A DNA stretch of 59,304 nucleotides from a virus (IMGVR_UViG_3300005805_000098:1-59304), one strand, 5' to 3'; numbered from the stretch's first letter, positions 5,188 through 59,252 are shown. Notes: generated by a model from the letters alone, not told the origin. A program made the numbers and translations.

Positions 5188-6471
5188 ATGGCAGTCCGTA
5201 TACAACTTAGACGCGGTACCGCAGCAGAATGGTCTGCAAATAACCCAACTCTTGCTGCTGGTGAAGTTGGCGTTGAAACAGACACGCTCAAAATAAAGAT
5301 TGGTAATGGCTCCACTGCTTGGAACTCACTCGGTTATGGTGGACTACAGGGTCTTCAAGGAACCACAGGCGCACAGGGAGTACAGGGAACTCAGGGAGTT
5401 CAGGGAGTACAAGGTGTACAGGGAAGTCTTGGTGAGACTGGAGCGCAAGGCACTCAGGGAACCCAAGGCACTCAGGGAACCCAAGGCACACAGGGAACTC
5501 AGGGAACTCAGGGTCTTGATGGTCAAACTGGTGCCCAAGGTACACAGGGCGTACAGGGAGAGATTGGTTCTCAAGGTACTCAAGGCGTGCAGGGAACTTT
5601 TGGTACCCAAGGCACTCAGGGAACTCAAGGAGTACAAGGAGAAATTGGTTCTCAGGGAGTTCAAGGAGTTCAAGGTACTCAGGGAACTCAAGGAACCCAG
5701 GGAACTCAAGGAGTCGAAGGTCAGCAAGGAACCCAGGGAACTCAAGGTACCCAAGGTACACAGGGCACCCAAGGAACTCAAGGAACTCAAGGTACTCTTG
5801 GAACTCAAGGTGCTACTGGTACATTCGGTGGAGAAACCCACGAATATAACTTCCTAACTGATACAGGTAATACTGACCCAGGAAACGGAAACTTCAAGTT
5901 CAACAATGCAACAATTTCAAGTGCTACTGTTTTGTACATTGACAATGTTGACTTTAATACAAACGATATTACACAGTTACTTCAAACAATTGATGACTCT
6001 ACTTCTGGAATTAAGGGAACTATCAAGTTCACTGAAGTTGGAGATGCAAATAGTTTTGCCTTCTTCCAAATTACAGGCACACATACGCACGAGAGCGGTG
6101 GAGCATACTTCAGCGTTCCTATCGCACACGTAACTGGAACTCTTTCAGTTGTAAACAATGATAATGTTTACATTACCTTTGCTCGTGTCGGTGATAAGGG
6201 TGACACTGGAGCCCAAGGAACTCAAGGAACCCAAGGAACTCAGGGAGTACAAGGCGTACAGGGTGTGCAAGGAGTTCAAGGAGTTCAAGGCGAAACAGGA
6301 ACTCAAGGAGCCCAAGGTACTCAAGGAACGCTCGGTACTCAAGGAGTTCAAGGCACACAGGGAATCCAAGGTACTGAAGGTATTGGAACTCAGGGTACTC
6401 AGGGAACCGCTGGAACATCCCCTTCAGGAACAGCAGCCGTTGCTGATGTACTGATGCTAGGCGGTATGTAA
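5188..6471 (+). CDS. Collagen-like fibre with N-terminal Mtd/hyaluronidase-N-like anchor
   Basis: IQLRRGTAAEW..NPTLAAGEVGVETDT.KIKIGNG.TAWNSL N-terminal motif, plus two Gly-X-Gln tracts. Confidence 0.8.
   Translation: MAVRIQLRRGTAAEWSANNPTLAAGEVGVETDTLKIKIGNGSTAWNSLGYGGLQGLQGTTGAQGVQGTQGVQGVQGVQGSLGETGAQGTQGTQGTQGTQGTQGTQGTQGLDGQTGAQGTQGVQGEIGSQGTQGVQGTFGTQGTQGTQGVQGEIGSQGVQGVQGTQGTQGTQGTQGVEGQQGTQGTQGTQGTQGTQGTQGTQGTLGTQGATGTFGGETHEYNFLTDTGNTDPGNGNFKFNNATISSATVLYIDNVDFNTNDITQLLQTIDDSTSGIKGTIKFTEVGDANSFAFFQITGTHTHESGGAYFSVPIAHVTGTLSVVNNDNVYITFARVGDKGDTGAQGTQGTQGTQGVQGVQGVQGVQGVQGETGTQGAQGTQGTLGTQGVQGTQGIQGTEGIGTQGTQGTAGTSPSGTAAVADVLMLGGM
5341..5832 (+). repeat. 9-bp degenerate tandem repeat (Gly-X-Gln tract 3)
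   Basis: GTQ/GVQ codon repeats; a shorter tract lies at about 6190-6432. Confidence 0.9.
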
Positions 6472-7191
6472 CAACTCTGTACTGCCCCAGTGAATTTGGC
6501 TCTTACGGGCTGCCTCTAAATCAAACTTCACTGGTTTATATACAGTTGGTTTCAAAGTGTATGTAGCAAATCTCATTTGGTCTTGCTCTGCCTTCATACG
6601 AAAATTGAACACGTACCAATCTACAGGTGCTGTAATTCCACGTGTAGCAACGTCTTTCAACGCTTTTTCTGCGCCTCTTCTGCTGACAACGTAGGCTGCA
6701 CAAGACCACTGTTGGTATGACCTACAGATATGCTCTTCGTAGATATCGTGCTGCTGTTCATCATACGCAAATAAAGAATCCTCTGGAACAAATAGTGAAA
6801 AGAAGTCCCAAGTAGGAAGCAACTCTTTCATATAAGAGTGAGCAATTACTTCAAAGTTTTTGCTTAATACAACATCATCTTCAAATATAAACATTACATC
6901 GTGACTGCTATTCAAAAAGTTTTTGTAAGCCAACCAGTTACTTGCCCATACCCCAACCACTCCAGAACTAGGAGGAAAAGTCTCTCCAGGCTGTGCATAG
7001 TCCTGCACGGTGTTCACTATAAAGTCTGGATTTTCATCCATAAACTTTTGGGCTTTTTCTGCTGTATTCAGGTACATTGTTGGCGAACCAAGTCTAGGCA
7101 AAAATGACATGGTCTTTAAAATGCCCTCATAAGAACGATTTCTTACTTCATTTCCAGTATCAGTATGAAAGACTTCAAAGCAGGCACTCAT
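6457..7191 (-). CDS. Glycosyltransferase family 25-like
   Basis: FIFEDDV, AAYVVSRRGAEKAL and PVDW motifs are characteristic of GT25. Confidence 0.75.
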   Translation of the reverse strand: MSACFEVFHTDTGNEVRNRSYEGILKTMSFLPRLGSPTMYLNTAEKAQKFMDENPDFIVNTVQDYAQPGETFPPSSGVVGVWASNWLAYKNFLNSSHDVMFIFEDDVVLSKNFEVIAHSYMKELLPTWDFFSLFVPEDSLFAYDEQQHDIYEEHICRSYQQWSCAAYVVSRRGAEKALKDVATRGITAPVDWYVFNFRMKAEQDQMRFATYTLKPTVYKPVKFDLEAARKSQIHWGSTELLHTA

Positions 7192-7718
7192 AGTTTCTGT
7201 ATCCAGACTTGATATCCCACCTCAAGTAGCCTATAACGGTCTTTACAGACTGTTAGAAAGGCATCCACGCCTCTTTTAGGCTCCAGATACTTATCACCGT
7301 TGTAGTTCCACTCATAATCATCAAAGGCCATAACTCCACCTGGTTCTAAGACCTTAAATGCATTGAGACCATCTAGAGCAGTCTGTAAGGCTGTATGGTC
7401 ACCATCGATATAAATGAAGTTAAAAGTCTTGTCATTGATATTGAAGAACTCATCACTTGTCATTTTGCACTTTACTACTCGTAAATCTGCAGTTCGTGAG
7501 TCGTAATACTCTTCAACTGATTTAAAGTCTAGAGATTCGTGTGCCTTCTCTTCACTTCCTGCCCACGTATCGACATCGTGCAGACGTTCTATCTCTCGAT
7601 TGTTTAATAACCAGATAGTGGCATCTCCCGTGTACGCGCCCACCTGTAGGGCACGTAGCCGTTCTTTAGAAACGTGGCGAAAGTATTTTTCTACATCTTT
7701 AAACCAGTTTGGAAACAC
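7188..7718 (-). CDS. Class I SAM-dependent methyltransferase (Methyltransf_24-like)
   Basis: LQVGAYTG motif I, VDTW, FIYIDGDH, PGGVMAFDDY. Confidence 0.8.
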   Translation of the reverse strand: MFPNWFKDVEKYFRHVSKERLRALQVGAYTGDATIWLLNNREIERLHDVDTWAGSEEKAHESLDFKSVEEYYDSRTADLRVVKCKMTSDEFFNINDKTFNFIYIDGDHTALQTALDGLNAFKVLEPGGVMAFDDYEWNYNGDKYLEPKRGVDAFLTVCKDRYRLLEVGYQVWIQKL

Positions 7719-8278
7719 TAAAACAACCTCATGTTATTTAGACATCCGTTTACATACTCTGGAGCCATCTTGTGGTCATCAAGAAGATGTTGGAACAGAG
7801 CCTTGCTCTCTTCTTTGCGACCAATCCACCAACTAGAAACAGCCTTTTCAAACAGCAAACAATAAGAGCCGTAGTATTCAACCCAACCTGGTAGTGGATT
7901 ATTTAAGGTTAATGGTGCGTACTGCAGACCGATTTCTGCAAATGTGTAAGTCTTTATCCAATCTTTGCGATACTCGTAGTAGCGAGCCAATAAAAAGTAG
8001 GCCTCTGGTCTGCTGGGCATAAATGCAATTGCATGATGCAGCGTGTTTAGAACTGTAGCGCTACGGTCTTGTTGACGTGACCAGCAGAGAGCCATCTTTA
8101 ACAGTGATGTATAGGTCAATAACGGGTCGTTTTTATACCCTAAATCTGCAGCCCTAAGAAAGAACCCAGCAGCAGATGAATGCTGCTTTAATCGTTCATA
8201 TTCTTCTGCTAATGTAAAGTTTTTATTAGCATCCTTTGTGTTTGCAGCAAGGTCAATAACTAGGTCTTTAAGCGCCAT
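7718..8278 (-). CDS. TPR-repeat protein
   Basis: Helical repeats with P.RPEAYFLLARYY, as seen in TPR regions attached to glycosyltransferases. Confidence 0.65.
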   Translation of the reverse strand: MALKDLVIDLAANTKDANKNFTLAEEYERLKQHSSAAGFFLRAADLGYKNDPLLTYTSLLKMALCWSRQQDRSATVLNTLHHAIAFMPSRPEAYFLLARYYEYRKDWIKTYTFAEIGLQYAPLTLNNPLPGWVEYYGSYCLLFEKAVSSWWIGRKEESKALFQHLLDDHKMAPEYVNGCLNNMRLF

Positions 8279-9269
8279 AAGCCAGTGCCTCCGTAATCAT
8301 CTCGTTGACCACATGAGTAGGAACTTCAAGTAAAAATGCGCAATTATCTTGTACTCCGAAACTCAACAATAAGTTTCCGTCTTTTACTGCGGCTCCTGTA
8401 CAGAACTCAATAGCCGTTTCAAGGAACGAGAACTCTTTGCTCAAGCCCTTAAAGTTAAACTCTTTGTCCCAAACTACAAGGCGATGTCTATACACTGAAT
8501 CTTTTTGGTTTAAATAGTTACGCCACAACTTTACCTCGTGAGTAAAACAGAGGTAATAATCTCCCCAAGAAATGACGTGTGAACCACCACGCTGGTCAAT
8601 TGGAGACGGTGGTGTTTCTTTTACAATTGCTTGCTTACACTCTGGTTCATTTGGATTAGCCCATACAACCTCTGTTGGCATAGTCCACTTAACAAAATGA
8701 TAAGGCTTATCAAGAACAGGCATCCAGTTCTTTTCGCAATATGAGGTTGCCTCGTTCACGGGCGCGGGAACGCGTACGCGTGAGACTTCCTTTACTGTCC
8801 AATTATCTTTGTCTATAGTTAATTTACTATATTCCATACGACCCTGGCCGTTAGGAGTAGTGTCTCGCCTAACACCTATGGCGTAGTAGTCGCCGTCCCA
8901 TTGGACTATTCGAGCATCTTCTAATCCAATAAATTCCCATATGGGTTTATGTAGTTCTAACATCTCTATCTGCGCCGAATTAACGATGTTTAAGTCATTG
9001 TCAAGACGGCACAAGTAGTTTACGGTTCTAAGGTGTTGGTCTTTCTCAGGGTGCAGATAGGTAAGGGGCCCCCAAGGACTGTAAAACCTCTGGTCAGCCT
9101 CTGAGATATAGAGAGTGTAGTTAACTATCCTGAGATTTACAAGGATATCGCCATCCTTGTCTACATAAACGCTGGGGTTCATTATCCCAGTGTTGTCTGG
9201 AAGGCTGTGGTTTATAATCAGGGGGGCTAATTTTCCGCCCTGAGAAACCGATTTATGCACCAAATTCAT
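8268..9269 (-). CDS. Beta-propeller glycoside hydrolase/phosphorylase-like protein (GH130/GH43-like)
   Basis: NPSV, LEDARIV, EKNWMP, RGGS, IEFCTG and SFGVQD blade motifs; leaderless start. Confidence 0.6.
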   Translation of the reverse strand: MNLVHKSVSQGGKLAPLIINHSLPDNTGIMNPSVYVDKDGDILVNLRIVNYTLYISEADQRFYSPWGPLTYLHPEKDQHLRTVNYLCRLDNDLNIVNSAQIEMLELHKPIWEFIGLEDARIVQWDGDYYAIGVRRDTTPNGQGRMEYSKLTIDKDNWTVKEVSRVRVPAPVNEATSYCEKNWMPVLDKPYHFVKWTMPTEVVWANPNEPECKQAIVKETPPSPIDQRGGSHVISWGDYYLCFTHEVKLWRNYLNQKDSVYRHRLVVWDKEFNFKGLSKEFSFLETAIEFCTGAAVKDGNLLLSFGVQDNCAFLLEVPTHVVNEMITEALAYGA

Positions 9270-11555: not shown

Positions 11556-12293
11556 ATGTCTACAAAAGAATCAGTAAACGTTTATTGGTCTAGTTTTTTT
11601 GTCGAACCTGGACAACATTGGAACATGCTATATCAAACCCCTACAACATTATTTGAAGAATTAAAGCAAAACAGAAACGCAGAGGTTAGCGCTTCAGCAT
11701 CGTTCTTAATGTGTCCAGCAGTGTCGGAAAAATTTAAAAAAACCTATGTTTTTAGAAATACACTTACATCTAAATTTATCTTTAAAGAAGATAATATCTT
11801 CTCTGTTTTACCAGAAAGTCAACCTTTTATTGGAATAAGGTCTATAAGAAAACCTACAATAAAAAACACAAATATTTTTCAATACAATATGTATTGGATT
11901 TTCTTTTCAGAGGAACCTTTAATTGCCGATTTTACGTCTCCATACTTTCATAAACCAATGTATACCCAATACGGAACTTTAATTTCTGGAAAATTTGATA
12001 TTGGCTCGTGGTTTCGACCAGTCAATGCTGAAATAATGACCTGGGAATCAGAAGGTAAATTAGAGTTTCAAGAGGGAGAGCCTTTAATGTATGCGCATTT
12101 TAACACTGAAAAAAAAGTAAATTTAGTGCAATTTAGAGTTAATCAACAACTAATTAACTACTCTCAAGAGTGTGTTGCATCTCCAAAACAATACGGGTCT
12201 TTTTTATCATTAAAAAACAGATATACTAGGTTTAAACAAACAAACATGCAATCTTTGGTTTTAAAAGAAATAAAGAAAACATTAGGAGAATAA
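11556..12293 (+). CDS. Hypothetical protein, DUF6065/dUTPase-like fold (paralogue 1)
   Basis: FLMCPA, GKFDIGSWFRP, EGEPLMY; distantly similar to the 12293 and 16281 ORFs; AT-rich. Confidence 0.45.
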   Translation: MSTKESVNVYWSSFFVEPGQHWNMLYQTPTTLFEELKQNRNAEVSASASFLMCPAVSEKFKKTYVFRNTLTSKFIFKEDNIFSVLPESQPFIGIRSIRKPTIKNTNIFQYNMYWIFFSEEPLIADFTSPYFHKPMYTQYGTLISGKFDIGSWFRPVNAEIMTWESEGKLEFQEGEPLMYAHFNTEKKVNLVQFRVNQQLINYSQECVASPKQYGSFLSLKNRYTRFKQTNMQSLVLKEIKKTLGE

Positions 12294-13012
12294 TGTTACG
12301 TAAAAATAAAATAACATTTACCAATGTTTTTAAAAATTATGATTTTTCTTTTGCAACTCCAAAACCTGCATCAAAAGTTCTCCCACAATGGTATAAAGAA
12401 ATGCCTTCTTACAGCACAGAAGACGGTAAAAAAACACCACCAAAGGGTCCTGGAACAACTGCTACTATTAAAAAGTGTGTTCCAGTTTTTGATGCATTAA
12501 CTAGTGGCTATATCTTGACAACTGTTACAGACGTCTACGTCAGAGACTCTGATAATGGAATATTTCCTTATTTTCAATGGATTGACTTCAATGCTATAGA
12601 GTTCCACCCCGTAGTTCAAGCAGAAAAGTATCCTGGAGTAAACGAAACCAGTCCACCATTTCCCAAATGGATGAGTCCCTGGTCAATTAAAACTCCTAAA
12701 GGATACTCGTGTCTGTTTATTGCCCCTATGCACCAAAACAATGAATACTTTAAAATATTGCCTGGAATAGTTGACACTGATAAATATGCAAGCCCTGTTA
12801 ATTTTCCATTCATTTTAAAACCAGGGTTTAGAGGACTAATACCAGTAGGAACTCCCATGGCTCAAGTAATACCTTTTAAAAGAGAGTCTTGGAAGATGAA
12901 CCTTGGAGGAGAAGATGAACAGCAAAAAGTTCATAAAGAATTAAACATAATAAAATCTCGTTTTTTTGACGCATATAGAAGCATAATGTGGACTAAAAAA
13001 GAGTTTACCTAA
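12293..13012 (+). CDS. Hypothetical protein, DUF6065/dUTPase-like fold (paralogue 2)
   Basis: TIKKCVP.FDA.TSGY, WSIKTPKGYSCLF..P, GIVDTD, GTPMAQVIPFKRESWK. Confidence 0.55.
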   Translation: MLRKNKITFTNVFKNYDFSFATPKPASKVLPQWYKEMPSYSTEDGKKTPPKGPGTTATIKKCVPVFDALTSGYILTTVTDVYVRDSDNGIFPYFQWIDFNAIEFHPVVQAEKYPGVNETSPPFPKWMSPWSIKTPKGYSCLFIAPMHQNNEYFKILPGIVDTDKYASPVNFPFILKPGFRGLIPVGTPMAQVIPFKRESWKMNLGGEDEQQKVHKELNIIKSRFFDAYRSIMWTKKEFT

Positions 13013-13013
13013 A

Positions 13014-13934
13014 ATGATTGTTTATTGGGCAAAACTAGATTCTAATTATACAATTACAGAGATACTTGTTTTTGATGGTAAAATTTCGGACCAAACAATA
13101 CAAAAATATTTAAACTCTAATTTTGAAGGACACTGGATTAAAGCATCTTATAAACTCGATGAGACCTCACCTGATATTCCGATAAAAGGTAATCTTCCAG
13201 GAATTGGTCACAAATATGATGCTTCTTCTAATTTCATAATGCCTACAAAACCTCATTCTTCTTGGATAATAGACACAAAAACAGCACAATGGAAACCTCC
13301 AATTGAAAAACCAGACGGTGGATTTTGGAAATGGAAAGAAGAATTAGGAGACTGGATTGAAGAAGAGACGGAAAATCTTCCACACGATGTAACTACCATT
13401 TATTTTACAGACCTAATTTCGTGTGGGTTTCCAAGAAGTGGAAACACGTATTTATGTTCGGCTTTAGGAGACTTGTTTGGAAATAACCGCCCAGTTAAAG
13501 TAAATCATAACGTAAGTATTTTTGACACAAAAAATACGGTCATAGTTCCAATACGAGACCCACTAAACTCGTTAGTTTCGTTACATTTTATGAACTTTGA
13601 ACCAGCAAAAAATAACATAAAATACTTTATTAGATTTTACAACGCCCTTTTAAAAAATAAAGACAAACTAATAGTATTAAACTTCAATAATTTTACAACA
13701 GACCTTTTTTATATAAAACATAAAATTCAACAATTTTATGGTTTAAAAGCCGACAATAAGGTTACTTTGGAGTCTATAAAAGTTAATATGCAGAAAGACA
13801 GTAGGGGAGTAAATTTGCCTCAAAGAGACCCTCATCGCCTATCAAAAGAAGATGAAGTAAAGTCTGCTTTAGTAAGTGATGCGTCGTTTTTGGAATGTGT
13901 GAACTTGTACAACCAAATTAACCAACTGTCCTAA
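13014..13934 (+). CDS. Fibre-associated N-terminal domain fused to sulfotransferase-like domain
   Basis: N-terminus resembles the 11134 ORF. C-terminus has GFPRSGNTYL (5'-PSB loop) and IRDP..S..S (3'-PB). Confidence 0.6.
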   Translation: MIVYWAKLDSNYTITEILVFDGKISDQTIQKYLNSNFEGHWIKASYKLDETSPDIPIKGNLPGIGHKYDASSNFIMPTKPHSSWIIDTKTAQWKPPIEKPDGGFWKWKEELGDWIEEETENLPHDVTTIYFTDLISCGFPRSGNTYLCSALGDLFGNNRPVKVNHNVSIFDTKNTVIVPIRDPLNSLVSLHFMNFEPAKNNIKYFIRFYNALLKNKDKLIVLNFNNFTTDLFYIKHKIQQFYGLKADNKVTLESIKVNMQKDSRGVNLPQRDPHRLSKEDEVKSALVSDASFLECVNLYNQINQLS

Positions 13935-13980
13935 TACTTTATAGGACCTACAACAGGCTTCTTTAGGAGACAATGAACCT

Positions 13981-14514
13981 ATGCGTGGCAATCGGGTAGA
14001 AGGCCGTTTCAAAATAGACTATGAAACCTCATCTATGGATGAGGGCATGGTCGATGAGTTGCGTCTACCTGTAGGTACAACGGTTGATTGGTGGACTTGG
14101 AACCCTGCTGCGTTTGTCGCAGACTATGAAGAGTACATAGACCCAATCTATGACACCTCTAATCAAACCGATGGTCTTGGTCGTCGTTGGGATGAGCCTT
14201 TTGATATGCCAGTAATTTTGGCGCAACAGATTCGTGGCCAGAATGTCATGAACGAACGAGGCTTCTATACAATAGATACTTTGCGCCTTGTAATAGCGGT
14301 AGATGACATAAACCGTCTTCTACCAGACATCATTACCAACCCTACTGACCACATCAAAGACAGGGTAATTTTTCAAAACTCTGTATTCACGCCTACGAGG
14401 GTAAATCCACGAGGCAGATACAAAGAAAGGTATTCCGTAGTTACAATTGACTTGAACCAGGTCAATGCTGAAGAATTGGTCAACGACCCTCAGTTTCAGG
14501 CGTACGCAGAATAG
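13981..14514 (+). CDS. Putative head closure/neck protein
   Basis: 177-aa ORF ahead of tail-completion genes; beta-rich C-terminus. Confidence 0.45.
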   Translation: MRGNRVEGRFKIDYETSSMDEGMVDELRLPVGTTVDWWTWNPAAFVADYEEYIDPIYDTSNQTDGLGRRWDEPFDMPVILAQQIRGQNVMNERGFYTIDTLRLVIAVDDINRLLPDIITNPTDHIKDRVIFQNSVFTPTRVNPRGRYKERYSVVTIDLNQVNAEELVNDPQFQAYAE

Positions 14515-15854: not shown

Positions 15855-16000
15855 TGGCGCTAAAAGGTAAGCAGACCAAACTAGACCTCAATAAGAACGG
15901 CAAACTAGATAAGCAAGACTTCTCAATGCTACGTGGCAAGAAAGGCGCTGCTAAGGCAAAGGGCAAGACACAGGCTATGCCTAGAAAGAAGGGCATGTAA
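15854..16000 (+). CDS. 48-aa basic protein with EF-hand-like loop (missing from ORF track)
   Basis: MALKGKQTKLDLNKNGKLDKQDFSMLRGKK...; TAATG overlaps at both ends. Confidence 0.6.
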   Translation: MALKGKQTKLDLNKNGKLDKQDFSMLRGKKGAAKAKGKTQAMPRKKGM

Positions 16001-16260
16001 TGGCCAAGTACACTAAAGAAGCCGATGAAAAAAAAGACAAAGGCCTTTTAAAAAAGGCTGGCTTTGAAAAAGAGCAAAAAGAAGAGTTTGAAAAGAAGGA
16101 CAAGGCTCACGGTAAAAAGAAGAAGCCAAAGACTCTCGAAGAAGACAAAAAGATTGATAAGAAGATTATCAAGGGCATAAAGAAGAAAGAAAAGGCTCAC
16201 GAAAAGAAGGAAGGCAAAAAGGGCGAAAAGGCCGAAGAAAAGCGGGAAAAGAAAAAGTAA
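16000..16260 (+). CDS. Lys/Glu-rich low-complexity protein
   Basis: 86 aa, coupled start. Confidence 0.6.
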   Translation: MAKYTKEADEKKDKGLLKKAGFEKEQKEEFEKKDKAHGKKKKPKTLEEDKKIDKKIIKGIKKKEKAHEKKEGKKGEKAEEKREKKK

Positions 16261-16280: not shown

Positions 16281-17012
16281 ATGAAACTGCAAAACAATGT
16301 TTTGCAATTTTATCCTGTAACAGAAGATACTCTTAGTTGGTCTGAACCCCCACAACCTGGAATTAGGTCAAACATACCTAATTGGTTAAGAAAAACTCCC
16401 AAGTACCGATATGGACAAACGAAGTTTGTTTTTGAGGGAGAATCAAACCTTTCTATACGTAATTGCATACCTTTTTTAGAGTCGTTTACGACTGGGTATG
16501 TGATGACACTGCCTTGCGATATCCAGGTACGTACACTTGAAGATGGAAGTCCTAGAATAACTTGGGGAGGGTCCAACTTTCCAAATGCTCCAGTAACTTC
16601 ACGACCTTTTGATGAGGTACAGTATCCGCAGGTTCCCTTAATGGAAGGGTTTGATAGGTTACAGTTTAACTGGATGCCGCAATGGTCAGTTAAAACTAAA
16701 AAAGGTTACAGTTGTCTATTTATTCACCCCATAAATAGAGTGGATTTGCCATTTTACACTTTAGGAGGGGTAGTTGATACTGACAGATGGGGAGAGGCAG
16801 GAAACCACCCCTTCTTATTAAAGAAAGGTTGGGAGGGGATAATAGAAAAGGGAACACCTGTTGTTCAGATAATCCCTTTTAAACGAGAATCCTGGAAATC
16901 CGAACTAAAACAGGCTTTATTTCCAGAATATCTAAAAAAGATACGGGAAAGAGATAGGACCTTAATAGGGTGGTATAAAAAGAACGCTTGGGCTACGAAA
17001 TCCTACAAATAA
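16281..17012 (+). CDS. Hypothetical protein, DUF6065/dUTPase-like fold (paralogue 3)
   Basis: Clear paralogue of the 12293 ORF (WSVKTKKGYSCLFIHP, GVVDTD, GTPVVQIIPFKRESWK); GGAGG SD. Confidence 0.55.
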   Translation: MKLQNNVLQFYPVTEDTLSWSEPPQPGIRSNIPNWLRKTPKYRYGQTKFVFEGESNLSIRNCIPFLESFTTGYVMTLPCDIQVRTLEDGSPRITWGGSNFPNAPVTSRPFDEVQYPQVPLMEGFDRLQFNWMPQWSVKTKKGYSCLFIHPINRVDLPFYTLGGVVDTDRWGEAGNHPFLLKKGWEGIIEKGTPVVQIIPFKRESWKSELKQALFPEYLKKIRERDRTLIGWYKKNAWATKSYK

Positions 17013-53287: not shown

Positions 53288-53836
53288 ATGTCTAACGTAC
53301 CTATTCTTGGGTCTAAAAAAGTTGAAAAGAAAGAAACCTTTCGTCTTCTACATTGCTGGGTCTGTGATTCTTTAGAAGAACTTCCACCATTTGAAGGTCC
53401 TGCAGACCAAGACTATCTTCTTGCTGTTGCCTGTGAGCGACATGTGTTTGACTCTGGAGAACCGCACAAAGGCAATCTGTTTGTTGACATTCCTGTCAAG
53501 GCTTGGCAAGACTCAGAAACTCGCAGAGATGCTATCCGTCAAATACGACAGGGTGGTTCCAAAGGTCTTGCTGAAATTGATGACACCTTTTATGACACTC
53601 GCTCTACCTTTATGGAAGATGCAATGACGTGTTACAAAGCGCACAATAAACCAAATGATGGATGTAACGATTGGCATCACGCTGACAAGATGTTGATTCC
53701 AAATACAGTCAAAGAACGGCGCAAAGAAGGCCTTGAAAGTTATGAAAACGCTCCAGGAGTAAAGACTTACTTATGTGACTTTTGTCCTGTAGCGATAGGC
53801 GTAGCACAACGTAAACAGAAACTGATGGGACTATAA
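53288..53836 (+). CDS. Cys/His-rich hypothetical protein
   Basis: CWVC...H...H and C..H...C...CDFCP; AAGGAG SD. Confidence 0.6.
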   Translation: MSNVPILGSKKVEKKETFRLLHCWVCDSLEELPPFEGPADQDYLLAVACERHVFDSGEPHKGNLFVDIPVKAWQDSETRRDAIRQIRQGGSKGLAEIDDTFYDTRSTFMEDAMTCYKAHNKPNDGCNDWHHADKMLIPNTVKERRKEGLESYENAPGVKTYLCDFCPVAIGVAQRKQKLMGL

Positions 53837-54160: not shown

Positions 54161-54172
54161 TAGACTAGGTGT
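54161..54172 (+). promoter_or_regulatory. -10 element of leaderless promoter
   Basis: TAGACT-AGGTGT-ATG. Confidence 0.5.
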
Positions 54173-55102
54173 ATGGAAAGCCAGTTAGGTTTAGATGAGT
54201 CTGTCGAAATTAGACAAGGCTCTACTTCTTACTTTTCTAAACCAGAAGAAACTCTAGACCCGCAGTTATTCACTGGCACAGTTCTCAAAGGCTGGGTGCG
54301 TAACGGCATTCTTCAACTCTTATTTGGATTCTTGAATGAGAATTACCGACACCCAGACCTTTGGGCTCACACATGGATTGCTGGTTCTGCTGTTTCGTAC
54401 CAATGGGCAGCACATCGTGACCCAGGTGATTTAGACGTTCTTATTGGCGTTGATTACGTGCAGTTCCGTAGAGCACATCCTGAATTTGTAGGATTGTCTG
54501 ATACGGAAATTAGCAAGATGTTGAATGAAGACTTTAGAGAGTATCTGCAACCAGAGACTACAAATTGGCACGACTTTGAAGTCACTTTTTATGTAAATCC
54601 TGGAGCCACAGATATTCGCACTATTCATCCTTATGCTGCCTATGACTTAAAACATAATGAATGGACAGTGTTTCCACGTCGTATCTCTGCTCCTAACAAT
54701 CCTGCATGGGATAAGGCTGTACAACGTGACCGTACTATGGCTATGGATATCGTTGCTCGATACTCTAAAGCAATGACAGAAGTAAAGGCAGCGCCTAACG
54801 ATGCAGCACGTCGTAATGCTGAGTTTAAACTACAACAGGCTCTTGAACATGGAACGATGCTATTTGATGACATTCATCGTTCTCGAAAACTTGCATTTGG
54901 AGAGTTTGGAAAAGGTTATGATGACTTTTATAATTATCGCTGGCAAGCAGGTAAAAAGTATGGCACCGTACCTGCTTTAAGACAGATGCACGATTACTTA
55001 AAGGCACAGCAAGAAGAGCAGGCTGTAGAAACATACGGGGTTCAATTGCCTGACACACAGACGCTTATCAGGAGAGCGGCAACTTATAGAGTAAAGGATT
55101 AA
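54173..55102 (+). CDS. Pol-beta superfamily nucleotidyltransferase
   Basis: IAGS.VSYQW...GDLDVLI (GS-x-DxD), a third acidic residue in FEVTFY, YDL....W..P and a helical C-terminus. Confidence 0.75.
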   Translation: MESQLGLDESVEIRQGSTSYFSKPEETLDPQLFTGTVLKGWVRNGILQLLFGFLNENYRHPDLWAHTWIAGSAVSYQWAAHRDPGDLDVLIGVDYVQFRRAHPEFVGLSDTEISKMLNEDFREYLQPETTNWHDFEVTFYVNPGATDIRTIHPYAAYDLKHNEWTVFPRRISAPNNPAWDKAVQRDRTMAMDIVARYSKAMTEVKAAPNDAARRNAEFKLQQALEHGTMLFDDIHRSRKLAFGEFGKGYDDFYNYRWQAGKKYGTVPALRQMHDYLKAQQEEQAVETYGVQLPDTQTLIRRAATYRVKD

Positions 55103-55591
55103 ATGAACATACTTCTATCACTAAACGGGGTACTACGGGCGGAATCTGGAGAACCAAACAGAGCAGGAGTTATCCTGTACTACGCTCTCAATGCTGCACA
55201 CCGTGTTGCAATCATTACAAAAGATGATAAAGCCAATGCAAACCATTGGTTACAGTCTCACGGCATTATTGGATACGACGATTTATTAGATAACTCTGTT
55301 GAGTTAGCGGGCGAAGTACTAAAGAGAAGACAGTTCCTTCTTAGCAGAGCCAAGGCTCCCATAGAAATGTATGTTGACTCTGACCCTGAGATGTGTGCAT
55401 GGGTATTTGAGCATCAGAATGTTCCTACTCTCCTGGTCAGTCATCCAAGTTACTTGCCAGTAGAACATAGACCAGATGCTCCTCGTAAGGTTCGTGCTTG
55501 GAACGAGATAGAGGAAGCCATTACAAGAGTTAACATTGCCAAATCTAAGTATGCCTCGCAGCCAAAGGATATTGAACTGTGGCAAGACTAG
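55103..55591 (+). CDS. HAD-fold protein, catalytic Asp apparently lost
   Basis: ILLSLNGVL aligns to the DxDGVL motif I; IIT motif II; YVDSD motif IV. Confidence 0.55.
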   Translation: MNILLSLNGVLRAESGEPNRAGVILYYALNAAHRVAIITKDDKANANHWLQSHGIIGYDDLLDNSVELAGEVLKRRQFLLSRAKAPIEMYVDSDPEMCAWVFEHQNVPTLLVSHPSYLPVEHRPDAPRKVRAWNEIEEAITRVNIAKSKYASQPKDIELWQD

Positions 55592-57087
55592 TTTTTTCTG
55601 GTACAGAGGTCGGAAGTAATCGCACTCTTCTAGAAGGTATGAAAGTTGAGTCGATGGGGCTCAACTATTGGGGTCTACGCAAGAGGGGACTACCAAAAAC
55701 AAAGATTTGGCTTATATCTGAACATTTTGATGACTCTGCAAAAGTTTACATTGAGTCAGGAGCCTCACAAGCAGACAAGGCTGGTCTATCCAAAGCAGAA
55801 CTTATCGACTTGGCCGCCGACTATCAAGAGTTTCTGGTCAATAACGCAGATAGGGCCGCAGCCTTCCAGGAGTTTGACTCACAGGTTCTGGGCAAAGAAT
55901 GGGTCGCCCAACAACGTTCCTTTTTCAGTAATGACCCTAAACTATGGGTTATATGGCATTCAGAGTACGGAATACAGAACCTAAAAGAATTATCTGAGCA
56001 ATTCCAAAATGTTGCAATACCCAATGAAGAGATTGAATCAGTAACCAACTTGGCAGGTATTACGCGGGCTTATGAAAGACAGTACGGAATTAAGTACCAT
56101 GCCCTTGGATGTGCCAAGCCAGATAATCTGAGACAGATACCATTTGCCACAGCCAGCACATTGTCATGGTTATCGCCCATGAGAAGAGGCGAGACAATCA
56201 TCTGGGATGGAACCAAGTTAGTTAGATATCCAAAGAAGATGAAAGAACAAGCCAGACCTCGTTACAAAGCAATTGTAGAGAAAGCAGGACTGGACTATTT
56301 AGAGTTTGTAAACGATAGTACCCTTGAAGCCACTAGGGTTGCCGTGTGGTCATACCTACGATTGGAAGAGTCAATGGATAAGAAGAAACCCGATTTACAC
56401 ATAATCGAAGGTGGCAAAGAGTCCGAAGTATCTGATAACAGCGATACGCCCCTTATGTCTGGTTTGATGGAATTGATGGGGGTACCTTCTGATAACAGTG
56501 GAGCAGAAGGGAGGAAAGTGGAGCGAAGTGAAGTGGTGCAAAGAGCCCCTGAAGAAATGCAAAACTTACCTGTCTTCGGCTTCAATGTAAAGACTGTAGT
56601 AGAAACGGATGAGAATGGAAGAGATGTCCTCAAAGATGTACCCGTCGTTCAAACGCAGAGTAGTTCAATTCGTCAGTGCAACACTTGCTTTGTCGCTGCT
56701 AATTGCCCTGCTTTCAAGCCTAATAATCTTTGTGCCTTTAATCTTCCAGTAGAAGTAAAGACCAAGGAACAACTAAAAGCCCTGCTCACAGCCATAATTG
56801 AGATGCAAGGACAGCGTGTGGCGTTCATGCGTTTTGCTGAAGAAATGAACGGCGGATACGCAGACCCCAACGTTTCGCAGGAGATAGACCGCCTCTTCAA
56901 ATTGGTCAATCAGGTCAAAGAGATGGAATCCAACAAGGAGTTTATACAGATTACAGCCCAACGCCAAAGTGCTGGTGGAGTGCTCTCAGCCATATTTGGA
57001 GACCGCGCCCAAGCCCTAAAAGAGTTACCTGAATCTTTAAAAGAAGAGACAGTCACAAAAATTATTTCTGAGTCTATAGAAGATTAG
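55579..57087 (+). CDS. TGT/DpdA-like TIM-barrel protein (degenerate) fused to a Cys4 C-terminal domain
   Basis: YIESGA (cf. DSGA), VIWH, YHALG, PFATASTLSW (cf. PFDSVDSxSW); C-terminal CNTC.....C........C. Confidence 0.5.
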   Translation: MARLVFSGTEVGSNRTLLEGMKVESMGLNYWGLRKRGLPKTKIWLISEHFDDSAKVYIESGASQADKAGLSKAELIDLAADYQEFLVNNADRAAAFQEFDSQVLGKEWVAQQRSFFSNDPKLWVIWHSEYGIQNLKELSEQFQNVAIPNEEIESVTNLAGITRAYERQYGIKYHALGCAKPDNLRQIPFATASTLSWLSPMRRGETIIWDGTKLVRYPKKMKEQARPRYKAIVEKAGLDYLEFVNDSTLEATRVAVWSYLRLEESMDKKKPDLHIIEGGKESEVSDNSDTPLMSGLMELMGVPSDNSGAEGRKVERSEVVQRAPEEMQNLPVFGFNVKTVVETDENGRDVLKDVPVVQTQSSSIRQCNTCFVAANCPAFKPNNLCAFNLPVEVKTKEQLKALLTAIIEMQGQRVAFMRFAEEMNGGYADPNVSQEIDRLFKLVNQVKEMESNKEFIQITAQRQSAGGVLSAIFGDRAQALKELPESLKEETVTKIISESIED

Positions 57088-57110
57088 TATCTGATAACAG
57101 CAATTATCAG
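56427..57110. repeat. 16-bp direct repeat AGTATCTGATAACAGC
   Basis: Exact copies at 56427-56442 and 57086-57101; 11-bp partial copy at 56488-56498. The last copy extends into the inverted repeat CTGATAA-N6-TTATCAG. Confidence 0.7.
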
Positions 57111-57245
57111 GGCATGAAACGTAGTTGAACCTTACAGTTGACTGTTAGGTATTCGTTAAAGTTAACAAGTGCATGGTAGGTTTTGCTCCATCACAATAGG
57201 CATCCCTTTGAGGGGTATTTGACAAATCTATGAAATGGTAGGGGT

Positions 57246-59252
57246 ATGTTCTCATTTAAATTAGCAGAAGACTTCATTGCTCAGTACAAAGACAAGAAGG
57301 CTCCATTTGGTTATCGAGACGCTGGTGGAAACTCGGTAGGTGAAATCACCTTCCTTCGTACCTATTCGCGTTTGAAGGAAGATGGTCGCAAAGAAACGTG
57401 GGTTGATGTTTGCGAGCGAGTTATCAACGGCATGTACTCTCTACAGAAAGACCATGCCAAGAGCCAACGCCTACCTTGGTCAGATGCTAAAGCAGCAGCC
57501 TCCGCTAAGGAAGCGTTTGACCGCCTATTTAACCTGAAATGGACACCACCAGGACGTGGTTTATGGGTCATGGGCACACCATTAGTAAATGTCCAACGAA
57601 ACTCTGCAGCCCTACAGAACTGTGCTTTTGTATCAACTGGCTCAATGACAAAGACTGACCCAGCAAAGCCATTCGCCTTTCTTATGGAGGCCTCAATGTT
57701 GGGAGTTGGTGTTGGCTTTGATGACAAGGGCGCAGATAAAGACTTCACTATCTACACACCACAAGGAGAACAGCCCTATGACATCCCAGACACCAGAGAA
57801 GGTTGGGTTGAATCAACAGCAGCCCTCATCAATGCTTACCTACGACCAGATTCGAAGAATCCAGTATTCAATTATGAAGCAATCCGTCCAGCAGGCGAAC
57901 CAATCAAAACGTTTGGTGGAACAGCAGCAGGACCAGACCCGTTAATCAAATTGCACGACCTGATTCGTGGCATGTTTGCAAATCGTGCAGGACAGAAATT
58001 AACTCGCAGAGACATTGCAGACATCGGCAACATGATTGGTGTCTGTGTTGTTTCTGGAAATGTTCGTCGTTCTGCTGAATTGTTAATGGGCAGACTTGAT
58101 GATGAAGAGTTCTTGAATCTGAAGAATTACGAAAAGAATCCTGAGCGCATGGCTCATGGCTGGATGTCCAATAATTCTGTTGAGGTATCTGTTGGACAAG
58201 ACCTAGCGCCAATCGTTGAGGGCATCGCTCGCAACGGTGAGCCAGGTGTTATTTGGATGGATGTAACTCGCAAGTATGGCCGTTTAGCAGACCCTGAAAA
58301 TAACAAAGACTGGCGTGCTGTGGGCTACAACCCCTGCGCTGAACAGTCTCTTGAATCGTACGAGTGCTGCACACTGGTTGAGACTTACTTAAACCGCCAC
58401 GAGAATCTAGAGGACTTCTTGCGTACTCTAAAATTTGCATACCTCTATGCAAAGACTGTAACGCTTCTTCCTACTCACTGGGAAGAGACCAATGCCATAA
58501 TGCAAAGAAATCGTCGTATTGGAACTTCTATATCTGGCGTTGCAAACTTTGCAGATAACAAAGGCTTGCCAACTCTGCGTGAATGGATGGATAGAGGATA
58601 TAAAGTTATACAAGATTATGATAAGTCTTATTCGGAGTGGCTAGGTATTCGTGAGTCAATCAAGACTACAACTGTGAAGCCAAGTGGAACAGTCTCTATT
58701 CTTGCTGGTGAGTCTCCTGGAGTTCACTGGTCTGTTGGTGGTAAACACTTTATGCGTGCTATTCGTTTTGCAAACAATGACCCAATGTTGCCGTTATTTA
58801 AGATGGCAAACTACAGAGTAGAACCCGCCAATGAATCTCCTGATACGACTTCTGTTGTCTTCTTCCCTGTAAAGTCAGATGCTATACGTTCTGAGAAGGA
58901 TGTTTCTATTTATGAAAAAATGGCACTTGCTGCTACTGCACAGAGATATTGGTCAGATAACTCTGTAAGTGTGACTGTCTCATTTGACCCAGAGAAAGAG
59001 GGTTCTGCTATTGGAACTGTACTGCATATGTACGACGGTCAGTTAAAGACCGTATCATTTTTACCAAGTGGCAACCATGTCTACCCACAAATGCCTTACA
59101 CACAGATAGACGAAGAGTTCTACAACGATTCAACTATGGAAATCTTCCCAATTGATTTTAGTGGCGTCTATGCTGGAATGGCAGCGGATGCGATTGGTGA
59201 AGCGTATTGCACAACAGACGCTTGTGAGATAAAGTTAATCTCAAACACATAA
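57246..59252 (+). CDS. nrdJ: Class II adenosylcobalamin-dependent ribonucleotide reductase (monomeric RTPR type)
   Basis: RTYSR, PPGRGLW, NCAF, GNVRRSA, NPCAEQ, TTVKPSGT, C-terminal CTTDAC. Confidence 0.93.
   Translation: MFSFKLAEDFIAQYKDKKAPFGYRDAGGNSVGEITFLRTYSRLKEDGRKETWVDVCERVINGMYSLQKDHAKSQRLPWSDAKAAASAKEAFDRLFNLKWTPPGRGLWVMGTPLVNVQRNSAALQNCAFVSTGSMTKTDPAKPFAFLMEASMLGVGVGFDDKGADKDFTIYTPQGEQPYDIPDTREGWVESTAALINAYLRPDSKNPVFNYEAIRPAGEPIKTFGGTAAGPDPLIKLHDLIRGMFANRAGQKLTRRDIADIGNMIGVCVVSGNVRRSAELLMGRLDDEEFLNLKNYEKNPERMAHGWMSNNSVEVSVGQDLAPIVEGIARNGEPGVIWMDVTRKYGRLADPENNKDWRAVGYNPCAEQSLESYECCTLVETYLNRHENLEDFLRTLKFAYLYAKTVTLLPTHWEETNAIMQRNRRIGTSISGVANFADNKGLPTLREWMDRGYKVIQDYDKSYSEWLGIRESIKTTTVKPSGTVSILAGESPGVHWSVGGKHFMRAIRFANNDPMLPLFKMANYRVEPANESPDTTSVVFFPVKSDAIRSEKDVSIYEKMALAATAQRYWSDNSVSVTVSFDPEKEGSAIGTVLHMYDGQLKTVSFLPSGNHVYPQMPYTQIDEEFYNDSTMEIFPIDFSGVYAGMAADAIGEAYCTTDACEIKLISNT

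Follow-up and report, generated by a model that had tools for sequence, protein, structure and literature searches.

A large actinophage branch of DpdA homologues lacks the nucleophile aspartate and is encoded beside HAD-like and nucleotidyltransferase-like proteins

Identification of a nucleophile-less DpdA homologue encoded in a three-gene module

We identified three co-directional open reading frames (ORFs), g1, g2 and g3, at the right end of the viral DNA IMGVR_UViG_3300005805_000098 (hereafter the window, which is the whole IMG/VR record of 59,304 bases with an estimated completeness of 61%). The third gene, g3, encodes a homologue of the phage DNA-guanine transglycosylase DpdA and of tRNA-guanine transglycosylase (TGT) in which the aspartate that acts as nucleophile is replaced by serine. 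It belongs to a branch of DpdA proteins that is common in freshwater and Streptomyces phages and has neither the nucleophile nor a pathway for substrate synthesis, yet is highly conserved and has new fixed partners. The original prediction, made from the sequence of the window, described the trio as a nucleotidyltransferase gene followed by degenerate haloacid dehalogenase (HAD) and TGT-like genes, and proposed a novel nucleic acid modification or signalling system. We tentatively favour the reading that a large actinophage branch of DpdA was repurposed after losing its deazaguanine chemistry, and that g3 would still act as a nucleic acid enzyme or as a targeting subunit.

The three ORFs were found as predicted, apart from the start of the unit, which had been placed at 54161 and is 12 nt too early, as g1 begins at 54173 (Table 1). 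The ATG of g2 abuts the stop codon of g1, and the reading frames of g2 and g3 overlap by 13 nt. Because each of the genes has many homologues (1069 proteins for g1, 163 for g2 and 1648 for g3), the trio is not due to chance. Clustering at 50% identity gave 857 representatives for the g3 family. No Pfam family matched g1, g2 or g3. Searches of the PDB with the three single protein sequences gave nothing significant (best E 1.2, for g2), and no significant match was obtained when the three family profiles were used. Of the three proteins, g3 alone has a PHROG assignment, which covers its full length (phrog_887, 'queuine tRNA-ribosyltransferase', E 2.5e-63).

g3 is a homologue of DpdA and TGT

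A structural model of g3 was made with AlphaFold2 (AF2) from an alignment of 89 diverse family members, each taken from a different 50%-identity cluster. The model has a predicted local distance difference test score (pLDDT) of 95-98 over residues 1-260 and of 88 for residues 261-270. The best match of the model in a Foldseek search of the PDB was a bacterial TGT (7a4k, E 2.5e-6, probability 1.00). Cap10 of the type IV cyclic oligonucleotide-based antiphage signalling system (CBASS) was found at E 8.8e-6 (9ntn_B), and the top 50 matches were all TGT, QTRT1 or Cap10. The barrel was also recovered by profile comparison. A profile of phage DpdA1, built from five phage DpdA proteins that are each encoded beside preQ0-synthesis genes such as folE, queD, queC and queE, aligned with the g3 profile over 234 columns (hhalign probability 98.6%, E 1.3e-15). 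The N-terminus of gp021 of Bacillus phage BCD7 aligned with it at a probability of 99.9% (E 2e-32). In tblastn searches the BCD7 barrel reaches the DpdA proteins of 9g, Seuratvirus, PaMx25 and Vid5 (144 records), and gp021 forms a bridge between the g3 family and known DpdA. With the single TGT sequence of Escherichia coli, hhalign aligned the DSG motif alone (E 0.15). The motifs common to g3 and DpdA are hhhDSGA, xLD, PxxH, HGxG and xSxSW-x6-G. The protein is thus a true DpdA/TGT homologue, as had been proposed from its barrel pattern. Existing family models miss it: Pfam TGT (PF01702) and DUF6610 (PF20314) matched none of the 89 family members, the NCBIfam DpdA model NF041059 matched one of the 89 at E 0.21 only, and the PADLOC DpdA models gave no match to g3.

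The barrel is followed by a poorly conserved linker (mean column conservation of 0.27 versus 0.46 in the barrel) for which the model is of low confidence, with pLDDT below 50 at residues 282-313, and by a C-terminal domain consisting of a Cys4 cluster and a helical part. The four cysteines of this cluster (C367-x2-C370-x5-C376-P-x7-C385), recognized in the original prediction as an extra Cys4 domain, are invariant in the 89 sequences. The motif CxxCx5CPx7C lies about 100 residues past the barrel and differs from the TGT-type structural zinc site. A tblastn search with residues 367-500 found the C-terminus of the BCD7 protein (E 2e-9) and also hit Bacteroides phage BS162P1 (E 5e-8), and the C-terminal Cys4/helical domain is common to g3, BCD7 gp021 and BS162P1.

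The nucleophile aspartate is lost while other barrel residues are retained

In bacterial DpdA, Asp95 is the general acid/base and Asp256 the nucleophile, and alanine at either of these positions abolishes guanine exchange; three active-site aspartates are described as invariant in both families (PMC10164549). In the translation of g3 the corresponding motifs read VYIESGAS and FATASTLSW, with Glu59 at the general acid/base position and Ser193 at the nucleophile position. The substitutions ESGA and ASTLSW had been noted before; they are real, and the loss of the nucleophile extends across the branch. Among the 89 representatives, position 193 is Ser in 39, Ala in 14, Thr in 13, Gly in 12, Met in three and Tyr in two members, and Asp in none (0/89). 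Asp was found at this position in only one of 151 sequences (P0258), and in 87 distinct locus genes the residue is Ser in 79, Ala in three, Gly in two and Asp in one, which is that of BCD7, with two genes unaligned. Position 59 is less strict: Asp in 59, Glu in nine, Tyr in seven, His in five, Asn in three and Thr in one of the 89 members, and Glu in 58, Asp in 21, His in five and Ser in two of the 87 loci.

The aspartate used for base recognition (Asp130 in bacterial DpdA, Asp114 in 9g) is kept as Asp100 in the window and as Asp in 73/89 members. Other conserved barrel residues are Trp197 (all 89), Glu/Asp205 (84), Glu10 (83), Glu98 (82) and His174 (76). No conserved replacement carboxylate was seen near the lost nucleophile; position 190 is Asp in 27/89 members. 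The g3 protein is also well conserved as a whole. Its median identity is 77.8%, second in the block to the downstream ribonucleotide reductase (83.0%) and above g1 (68.2%) and g2 (64.2%), and in 55/55 loci its identity exceeds that of both g1 and g2.

Several family members carry inteins, located at about residues 197-214, which is beside the former nucleophile loop, and at 370-376 and 385-402, which is at the Cys cluster; the insertions at about 370-376 and 385-402 were found in three members. As a rule, inteins reside in sites of catalysis or cofactor binding. LAGLIDADG inteins occur at three different sites in the family, and other members have an N-terminal HNH endonuclease fusion (P0268, P0330, P0337, P0340; P0246, P0254).

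Relatives linked to queuosine-type genes keep the nucleophile

Two outgroup members of the g3 family are BCD7 gp021 (757 aa), which is encoded directly after queD-queE-queC-folE, and gp87/88 of BS162P1, where the g3-type gene is split into a barrel ORF and a C-terminal ORF (L153 4851-5675 and 5728-6483). A QueC match annotated only as hypothetical lies immediately upstream of the split gene. These proteins resemble g3 in the barrel, the C-terminal domain and phrog_887; unlike g3 they have a queC neighbour and keep Asp at both 59 and 193. Neither g1 nor g2 was found within 6 kb of them. The gene for gp015 of BCD7, labelled 'nucleotidyltransferase', was considered as a relative of g1 and rejected (hhalign E 0.69). 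Homologues with the canonical Asp that stand beside que genes were found only in these two phages.

In a FastTree phylogeny of the barrel, the g3 family is monophyletic with respect to DpdA1 (support 0.995), and BCD7 and BS162P1 are sisters (support 0.907). Their position outside the rest is weakly supported, at 0.29 for the 90-tip actinophage group and 0.906 for 88 of these tips.

QueC and FolE were not matched in the window. Because the window is estimated to be only 61% complete, the pathway check was repeated on complete relatives. QueC was not detected in five relatives (0/5; four complete and one 87% complete) or in three more (0/3; BRock and two further complete genomes), whereas the same search matched BCD7 and BS162P1, which served as positive controls. 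FolE, QueD, radical SAM and Pfam TGT were each found in 0/5 complete relatives. In five complete genomes g3 is single-copy, with no second TGT or DpdA. On the sequences compared, loss of the nucleophile characterizes the whole actinophage branch and goes hand in hand with that of the pathway, because the que-linked relatives keep Asp. The earlier statements that deazaguanine genes are missing and that this is not a standard dpd modification both stand.

g2 and usually g1 are conserved upstream of g3

To describe the neighbourhood, the g1, g2 and g3 profiles were searched across all fetched loci, duplicates being removed on the basis of the final 200 residues of g3. Patterns for the locus scan were taken from a 13-sequence alignment, the 89-sequence alignment being too diverse. 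The GenBank Streptomyces loci L001 and L002 were dropped from the count, BRock being represented by L087 and GiJojo by none, and the count covered 79 distinct g3 genes, each preceded by 3 kb or more of sequence. In 77/79 of these loci g2 is found no more than 1.5 kb upstream of g3, and in 74/79 g1 lies within 4 kb. The genes are thus co-conserved, as the original prediction would have it. The two loci without g2 are exactly those of the que-linked outgroup phages BCD7 and BS162P1, which have no g1 either; L084, L089 and L101 have g2 and no g1. Of two loci added later, L154 has g2 only and L155 all three genes. The adjacency of g2 and g3 persists down to 20-30% identity of g2, across freshwater and Streptomyces phages.

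The gene order varies in detail. In Streptomyces phages it is g1 (gp39), g2 (gp38), an extra gp37 and g3 (gp36); in BRock-type phages an endolysin gene lies upstream and the additional gene stands between g2 and g3. Some close relatives have 0.3-0.8 kb of extra sequence between g1 and g2 (L008 954-1734, L004 7199-7513 and similar cases). A complex prediction for g3 with g2 (score 0.02, mark 0.32) gave no evidence either way.

Predicted properties of g2 and g1

The g2 protein looks HAD-like, usually without the nucleophile aspartate. Its N-terminus reads MNILLSLNGVL, with Ser6 and Asn8 at the two aspartate sites of the DxD of HAD motif I, and the replacement of DxDGV by SLNGV reported in the original prediction is correct; the HAD layout suggested at the same time is tentative, being read from motifs and weak look-alikes. 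The family motif is h-h-h-x-h-[D/E/N]-G-V-L. At the nucleophile position, 27 aligned members include two with Asp and four with Glu, while at the second position every member has one of Asp, Glu and Asn. In the 87 loci the nucleophile position is Ser in 47, Ala in seven, Thr in five, Asn, Phe and Glu in four each, Val in three and Asp in two, with three singletons, two gaps and six loci without g2, and the second position is Asp in 60, Glu in 12, Asn in six and Ser in one. Gly9, Trp49 and Trp133 are invariant in the alignment. Pfam gave no match in 27 g2 members. The best PDB profile match was the HAD protein 3u26 at a non-significant E of 0.51, and look-alikes in the ESM Atlas, taken as a lead only, were NIF/HAD clusters (0.88-0.89).

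The g1 protein is predicted to be a Pol-beta-type nucleotidyltransferase-like protein with an intact active-site motif. The GS...DLD motif pointed out in the original prediction (G71, S72, D86 and D88) agrees with the superfamily pattern hG[GS]-x9-13-Dh[DE]h and does not vary in alignments of 25 and of 32 homologues, and E136 in the next predicted strand, a third carboxylate, has a conservation of at least 90% across the 32 sequences. In the AF2 model (pLDDT 89.3) an alpha/beta core at the N-terminus is followed by a bundle of helices that takes up residues 177-308. Foldseek found no PDB match at E<=0.001; ANT(6)-Ib came first at E 0.011, and the non-significant top list contained ANT(6), CD-NTases (cGAS/DncV-like nucleotidyltransferases), MNT and AadA mixed with glutathione S-transferases. 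In BFVD, 11 viral models matched at E<=1e-3, among them a 'Polymerase, nucleotidyl transferase domain containing protein' (E 4.8e-9) and A0A6J5M1C6_1 (E 5.1e-9), an 812-aa protein of an uncultured phage labelled amidoligase. The g1-like fold in the latter may hint at a wider phage nucleotidyltransferase family. Pfam NTP_transf_2 did not match g1, and DUF6932 matched weakly in 6/32 members.

Comparison with known systems

The phage DpdA1 proteins (Enterobacteria phage 9g, Seuratvirus, PaMx25, Vid5) and bacterial DpdA share with g3 a homologous TIM barrel and its motifs, and DpdA1 is phage-carried like g3. They differ in that g3 has Ser for the nucleophile Asp and Glu for the general acid Asp and carries an extension of about 230 aa with the Cys4 cluster. 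The neighbours of known DpdA are folE/queCDE or a ParB-like protein, whereas g3 stands next to an HAD-like protein and a nucleotidyltransferase, with no preQ0 genes. The non-catalytic member of another TGT-fold pair can also be compared with g3: QTRT2 is a TGT-fold subunit of eukaryotic TGT that has no catalytic Asp and is kept as a partner. It pairs with a catalytic paralogue, whereas five complete g3-bearing phage genomes encode none.

A TGT-fold protein beside a Pol-beta-fold nucleotidyltransferase is also found in type IV CBASS, as Cap10 and its CD-NTase. Cap10, however, keeps the nucleophile Asp248 and Asp73 and requires the QueC-like Cap9 (bioRxiv 10.1101/2025.04.06.647259), while QueC is missing here. 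The N-terminus of CD-NTases is M(G/S)G(G/S)GG and that of g1 is MESQLG, the structural match of g1 to CD-NTases is not significant, and CBASS is a defence operon whereas g1-g2-g3 is a phage module. Without a QueC-like gene, the catalytic Asp and the Gly-rich nucleotidyltransferase N-terminus, the analogy was rejected, and the signalling role that had been suggested for the trio, taken on the model of this pair, fails for want of these defining features.

Mycobacterium phage Orion (cluster B1) is an actinophage, as the window phage probably is, and has a DpdA-like gene and no preQ0 pathway. A DpdA-like gene without the pathway is also mentioned in cluster B1 mycobacteriophage announcements (PMC9584339). 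No match to the g1, g2, g3 or DpdA1 profiles was obtained in 61,928 of the 68,427 bases of Orion; because it was detected by none of these profiles, the Orion gene belongs to another subfamily. The branch described here bears on the puzzle of DpdA-only actinophages without deazaguanine in their DNA (Hutinet et al. 2019, PMC6884629). Hutinet et al. 2023 defined DpdA3 and DpdA4 and proposed DpdA as a signature protein of 7-deazaguanine DNA (PMC10516641). In the literature searched, to which the supplementary phage-DpdA lists of Hutinet et al. 2019 and 2023 (which may include BCD7 or BRock) do not belong, we found no account of a nucleophile-less DpdA branch or of the gene trio. The annotations 'queuine tRNA-ribosyltransferase' and 'DpdA-like' of the BRock and GiJojo proteins probably mispredict the chemistry at the DNA. 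Together with Alone3, LuckySocke and pSt2308, these two phages offer cultured models for the TGT fold after base exchange was abandoned.

Possible functions of the g1-g2-g3 module

Under the repurposing that we tentatively favour, g3 descends from a phage DNA-guanine transglycosylase and belongs to the phrog_887 lineage, in which the DpdA-type barrel is combined with the C-terminal Cys4/helical domain, and the outgroup protein of BCD7 and BS162P1 most likely inserts 7-deazaguanine. The actinophage branch has lost the nucleophile Asp and all deazapurine-synthesis genes, relaxed the general acid, and gained g2 as a fixed upstream partner, usually with g1 too. The g3 protein probably still addresses nucleic acid through the retained pocket and the Cys4/helical domain. 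It would bind DNA via the C-terminal domain, hold a flipped purine in the pocket with Asp100 and His174, and no longer carry out Asp-mediated base exchange. The barrel might then remove the base non-covalently or by hydrolysis via the conserved Glu10, Glu98 and Glu/Asp205, or g1 might carry out nucleotidyl transfer at a site exposed by g3. With either option g2 would be a fixed accessory, a non-phosphatase subunit that may associate physically with g3, and g1 a frequent companion that is predicted to be catalytically competent. A more far-reaching proposal is that the three proteins make an undescribed, deazaguanine-independent phage DNA modification, in which a DpdA-derived base flipper that has abandoned exchange directs the site, and the nucleotidyltransferase, or else a newly acquired hydrolytic activity in the barrel, makes the covalent change. 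We consider this unlikely; if true, a large group of actinobacterial phages would mark or process DNA or RNA in a way that forms a class of its own. A tRNA target, which had been among the earlier suggestions, has nothing to speak for it: no tRNA gene was found in the window, and nothing else bears on tRNA.

A number of observations weigh against repurposing. Of the three canonical catalytic positions, two are degenerate, and the His, Tyr, Asn or Thr present at position 59 in 16/89 members is as compatible with a dead enzyme as with a changed one. The lost Asp is not compensated by Glu10, Glu98 and Glu205, because they are present in BCD7 too. P0258, which is nested within the Asp-less group (with low local support in the FastTree of the barrel), has Asp193; a viral scan with it found relatives at 33-37% only, and viral-contig scans with the distant representatives P0298 and P0375 found none. 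For g2, the HAD fold is a tentative assignment made from motifs and weak look-alikes. Four g2-g3 lineages (L084, L089, L101 and L154) do without g1, and nucleotidyltransferase chemistry is therefore not essential to the core; of the nucleotidyltransferase partner originally proposed, the motif holds and the core membership is not supported. Finally, the 79 loci are for the most part closely related (75-94% identity) and are not independent events, and the syntenic block also holds an unrelated gene for a Cys-rich protein, so that part of the synteny may reflect inheritance rather than functional linkage.

The same residue losses would be expected of a catalytically dead g3 that retains the DpdA scaffold with its base pocket and acts purely by binding, whether to mask sites or counter restriction, as a decoy, as a regulator or as a QTRT2-like non-catalytic subunit, with g2 as a second pseudo-enzyme. 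The absence of the nucleophile Asp from all 89 members, the variable general acid, the missing nucleophile in most g2 proteins and the absence of a substrate-synthesis pathway all agree with such a role, and TGT-fold proteins remodelled for binding have precedents in QTRT2 and Cap10 (bioRxiv 10.1101/2025.04.06.647259). Against a protein without activity stand the rank of g3 as the second-most conserved gene of the block, the conservation above 90% of several acidic residues on the barrel face and the placement of the inteins, and the phage has no catalytic paralogue with which g3 could pair. We regard a binding-only role as possible and on balance doubtful, and the earlier preference for two pseudo-enzymes over altered chemistry is left unsupported by the higher conservation of g3 relative to g1 and g2. 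Clear DpdA homology and the retention of the recognition residues Asp100 and His174 would suit an ordinary DpdA that inserts a 7-deazaguanine made by the host or imported, or some other base, and uses a different carboxylate as nucleophile. In Hutinet et al. 2019, reliance on host preQ0 is proposed for 76 DpdA-only phages, and one of these DpdA-only phages, Salmonella phage 7-11, carries traces of 2'-deoxy-7-amido-7-deazaguanosine (dADG) (PMC6884629). The same study, however, reports that no 7-deazaguanine was found by liquid chromatography-mass spectrometry in the DNA of Orion, a DpdA-only actinophage whose host lacks the pathway (PMC6884629). In bacterial DpdA the change of the nucleophile Asp to Ala abolishes exchange (PMC10164549), while the g3 family offers no conserved nearby replacement, the Asp at position 190 being confined to a minority, and the que-linked relatives keep their Asp, so that its loss tracks that of the pathway. 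Salvage of a base by an ordinary DpdA is thus improbable.

It is also conceivable that the genes are unrelated neighbours in an inherited order, with g1 and g2 acting in nucleotide metabolism together with nrdJ (for example as a nucleotidyltransferase and a nucleotidase-like protein) and g3 acting alone. The trio is next to the reductase gene in freshwater phages, the block includes the unrelated Cys-rich gene in all relatives, BRock-type phages have an extra gene between g2 and g3 and an endolysin gene upstream, and g1 is dispensable in four lineages. Inherited order does not readily explain why g2 stays beside g3 in both Streptomyces and freshwater phages at such low identity and is missing only where que genes and Asp193 are present. 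The overlap of the g2 and g3 frames also speaks for a connection, and g2 lacks the residue that a nucleotidase needs. We therefore think it quite unlikely that the three genes are merely neighbours, and retain the repurposing of the DpdA branch as the tentative explanation.

Genomic context of the module

The coordinates of the genes, domains and residues discussed here are given in Table 1.

Table 1. Features of the g1-g2-g3 region of the window and correspondence of g3 residues to those of phage 9g DpdA.
Feature	Position	Strand	Description
Cys-rich protein gene	53288-53836	+	182 aa; no Pfam or PHROG family
g1	54173-55102	+	309 aa; predicted Pol-beta-type nucleotidyltransferase-like protein
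g1 catalytic motif	54383-54436	+	G71-S72, x13, D86-L87-D88
g2	55103-55591	+	162 aa; small HAD-like protein; motif I nucleophile Asp missing
g2 S6-L7-N8	55118-55126	+	stands where HAD motif I has D-x-D
g3	55579-57087	+	502 aa; DpdA/TGT homologue; GTG start
g3 barrel, residues 1-270	55579-56388	+	TGT/DpdA-type (beta/alpha)8 barrel; AF2, Foldseek and hhalign
g3 Glu59	55753-55755	+	DpdA/TGT general acid/base Asp position (DSG motif); 9g 'fLDSGAF' aligned with 'VYIESGA'; 9g Asp72 (hhalign)
g3 Asp100			9g Asp114 (hhalign)
g3 His127			9g His141 (hhalign)
g3 His174			9g His196 (hhalign)
g3 Ser193	56155-56157	+	DpdA/TGT nucleophile Asp position; 9g 'ScDSSSW' aligned with 'TASTLSW'; 9g Asp215 of xDSSSW (hhalign)
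g3 linker, residues 271-360	56389-56658	+	poorly conserved; low-confidence model
g3 C-terminal domain, residues 361-502	56659-57087	+	Cys4 cluster, then helical domain
nrdJ-like gene	57246-59252	+	class II (B12-type) ribonucleotide reductase; PF17975 3.7e-30, PF21995 7.4e-15, phrog_367 7e-137

The trio is continuous with a long rightward gene array and is separated from the preceding gene by a spacer of just 19 nt, in which AGGTG is found one base ahead of the g1 ATG. No promoter- or terminator-like site for the trio scored above shuffled controls. Neither the leaderless character nor the operon of its own that had been proposed is supported, as nothing sets the three genes apart from the array. 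The Cys-rich gene is syntenic upstream in every relative examined, with tblastn identities of 29-95% (29-39% in Streptomyces phages). The class II ribonucleotide reductase gene lies directly downstream of the trio in the window and in freshwater relatives, and not in BRock-type phages. In the window the two are separated by 158 nt (57088-57245), in which no cobalamin riboswitch was detected; there was no Rfam match anywhere in the window.

The window comes from a freshwater phage, and this phage is a myovirus, with genes for tail sheath and tail tube as well as for collagen-like fibres. Its host is probably an actinobacterium, because a complete relative (L010) encodes a WhiB-like regulator (phrog_472, 2.7e-19; 15866-16198, minus strand) just beyond the reductase gene on the opposite strand, one g1 homologue falls in the bin of an actinobacterial metagenome-assembled genome, and all relatives in culture are Streptomyces phages. 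Also encoded beyond the reductase gene on the opposite strand in L010 is an integrase-like recombinase (phrog_1, 2.9e-54; 13090-14364, minus strand).

Elsewhere in the window, two large collagen-repeat tail-fibre proteins (2452-4902 and 5188-6471) gave many overlapping PHROG tail-fibre matches. A four-gene cassette on the minus strand (6457-9269) lies between tail-fibre and tail genes; two of its ORFs have no PHROG, and the other two code for a glycosyltransferase-like protein (phrog_16010, 8.4e-15) and for a protein resembling DNA methyltransferases (phrog_2675, 7.7e-8). A pair of paralogues at 12293-13012 and 16281-17012 belongs to phrog_7084, a family of unknown function (3e-57 and 1.1e-35, respectively).

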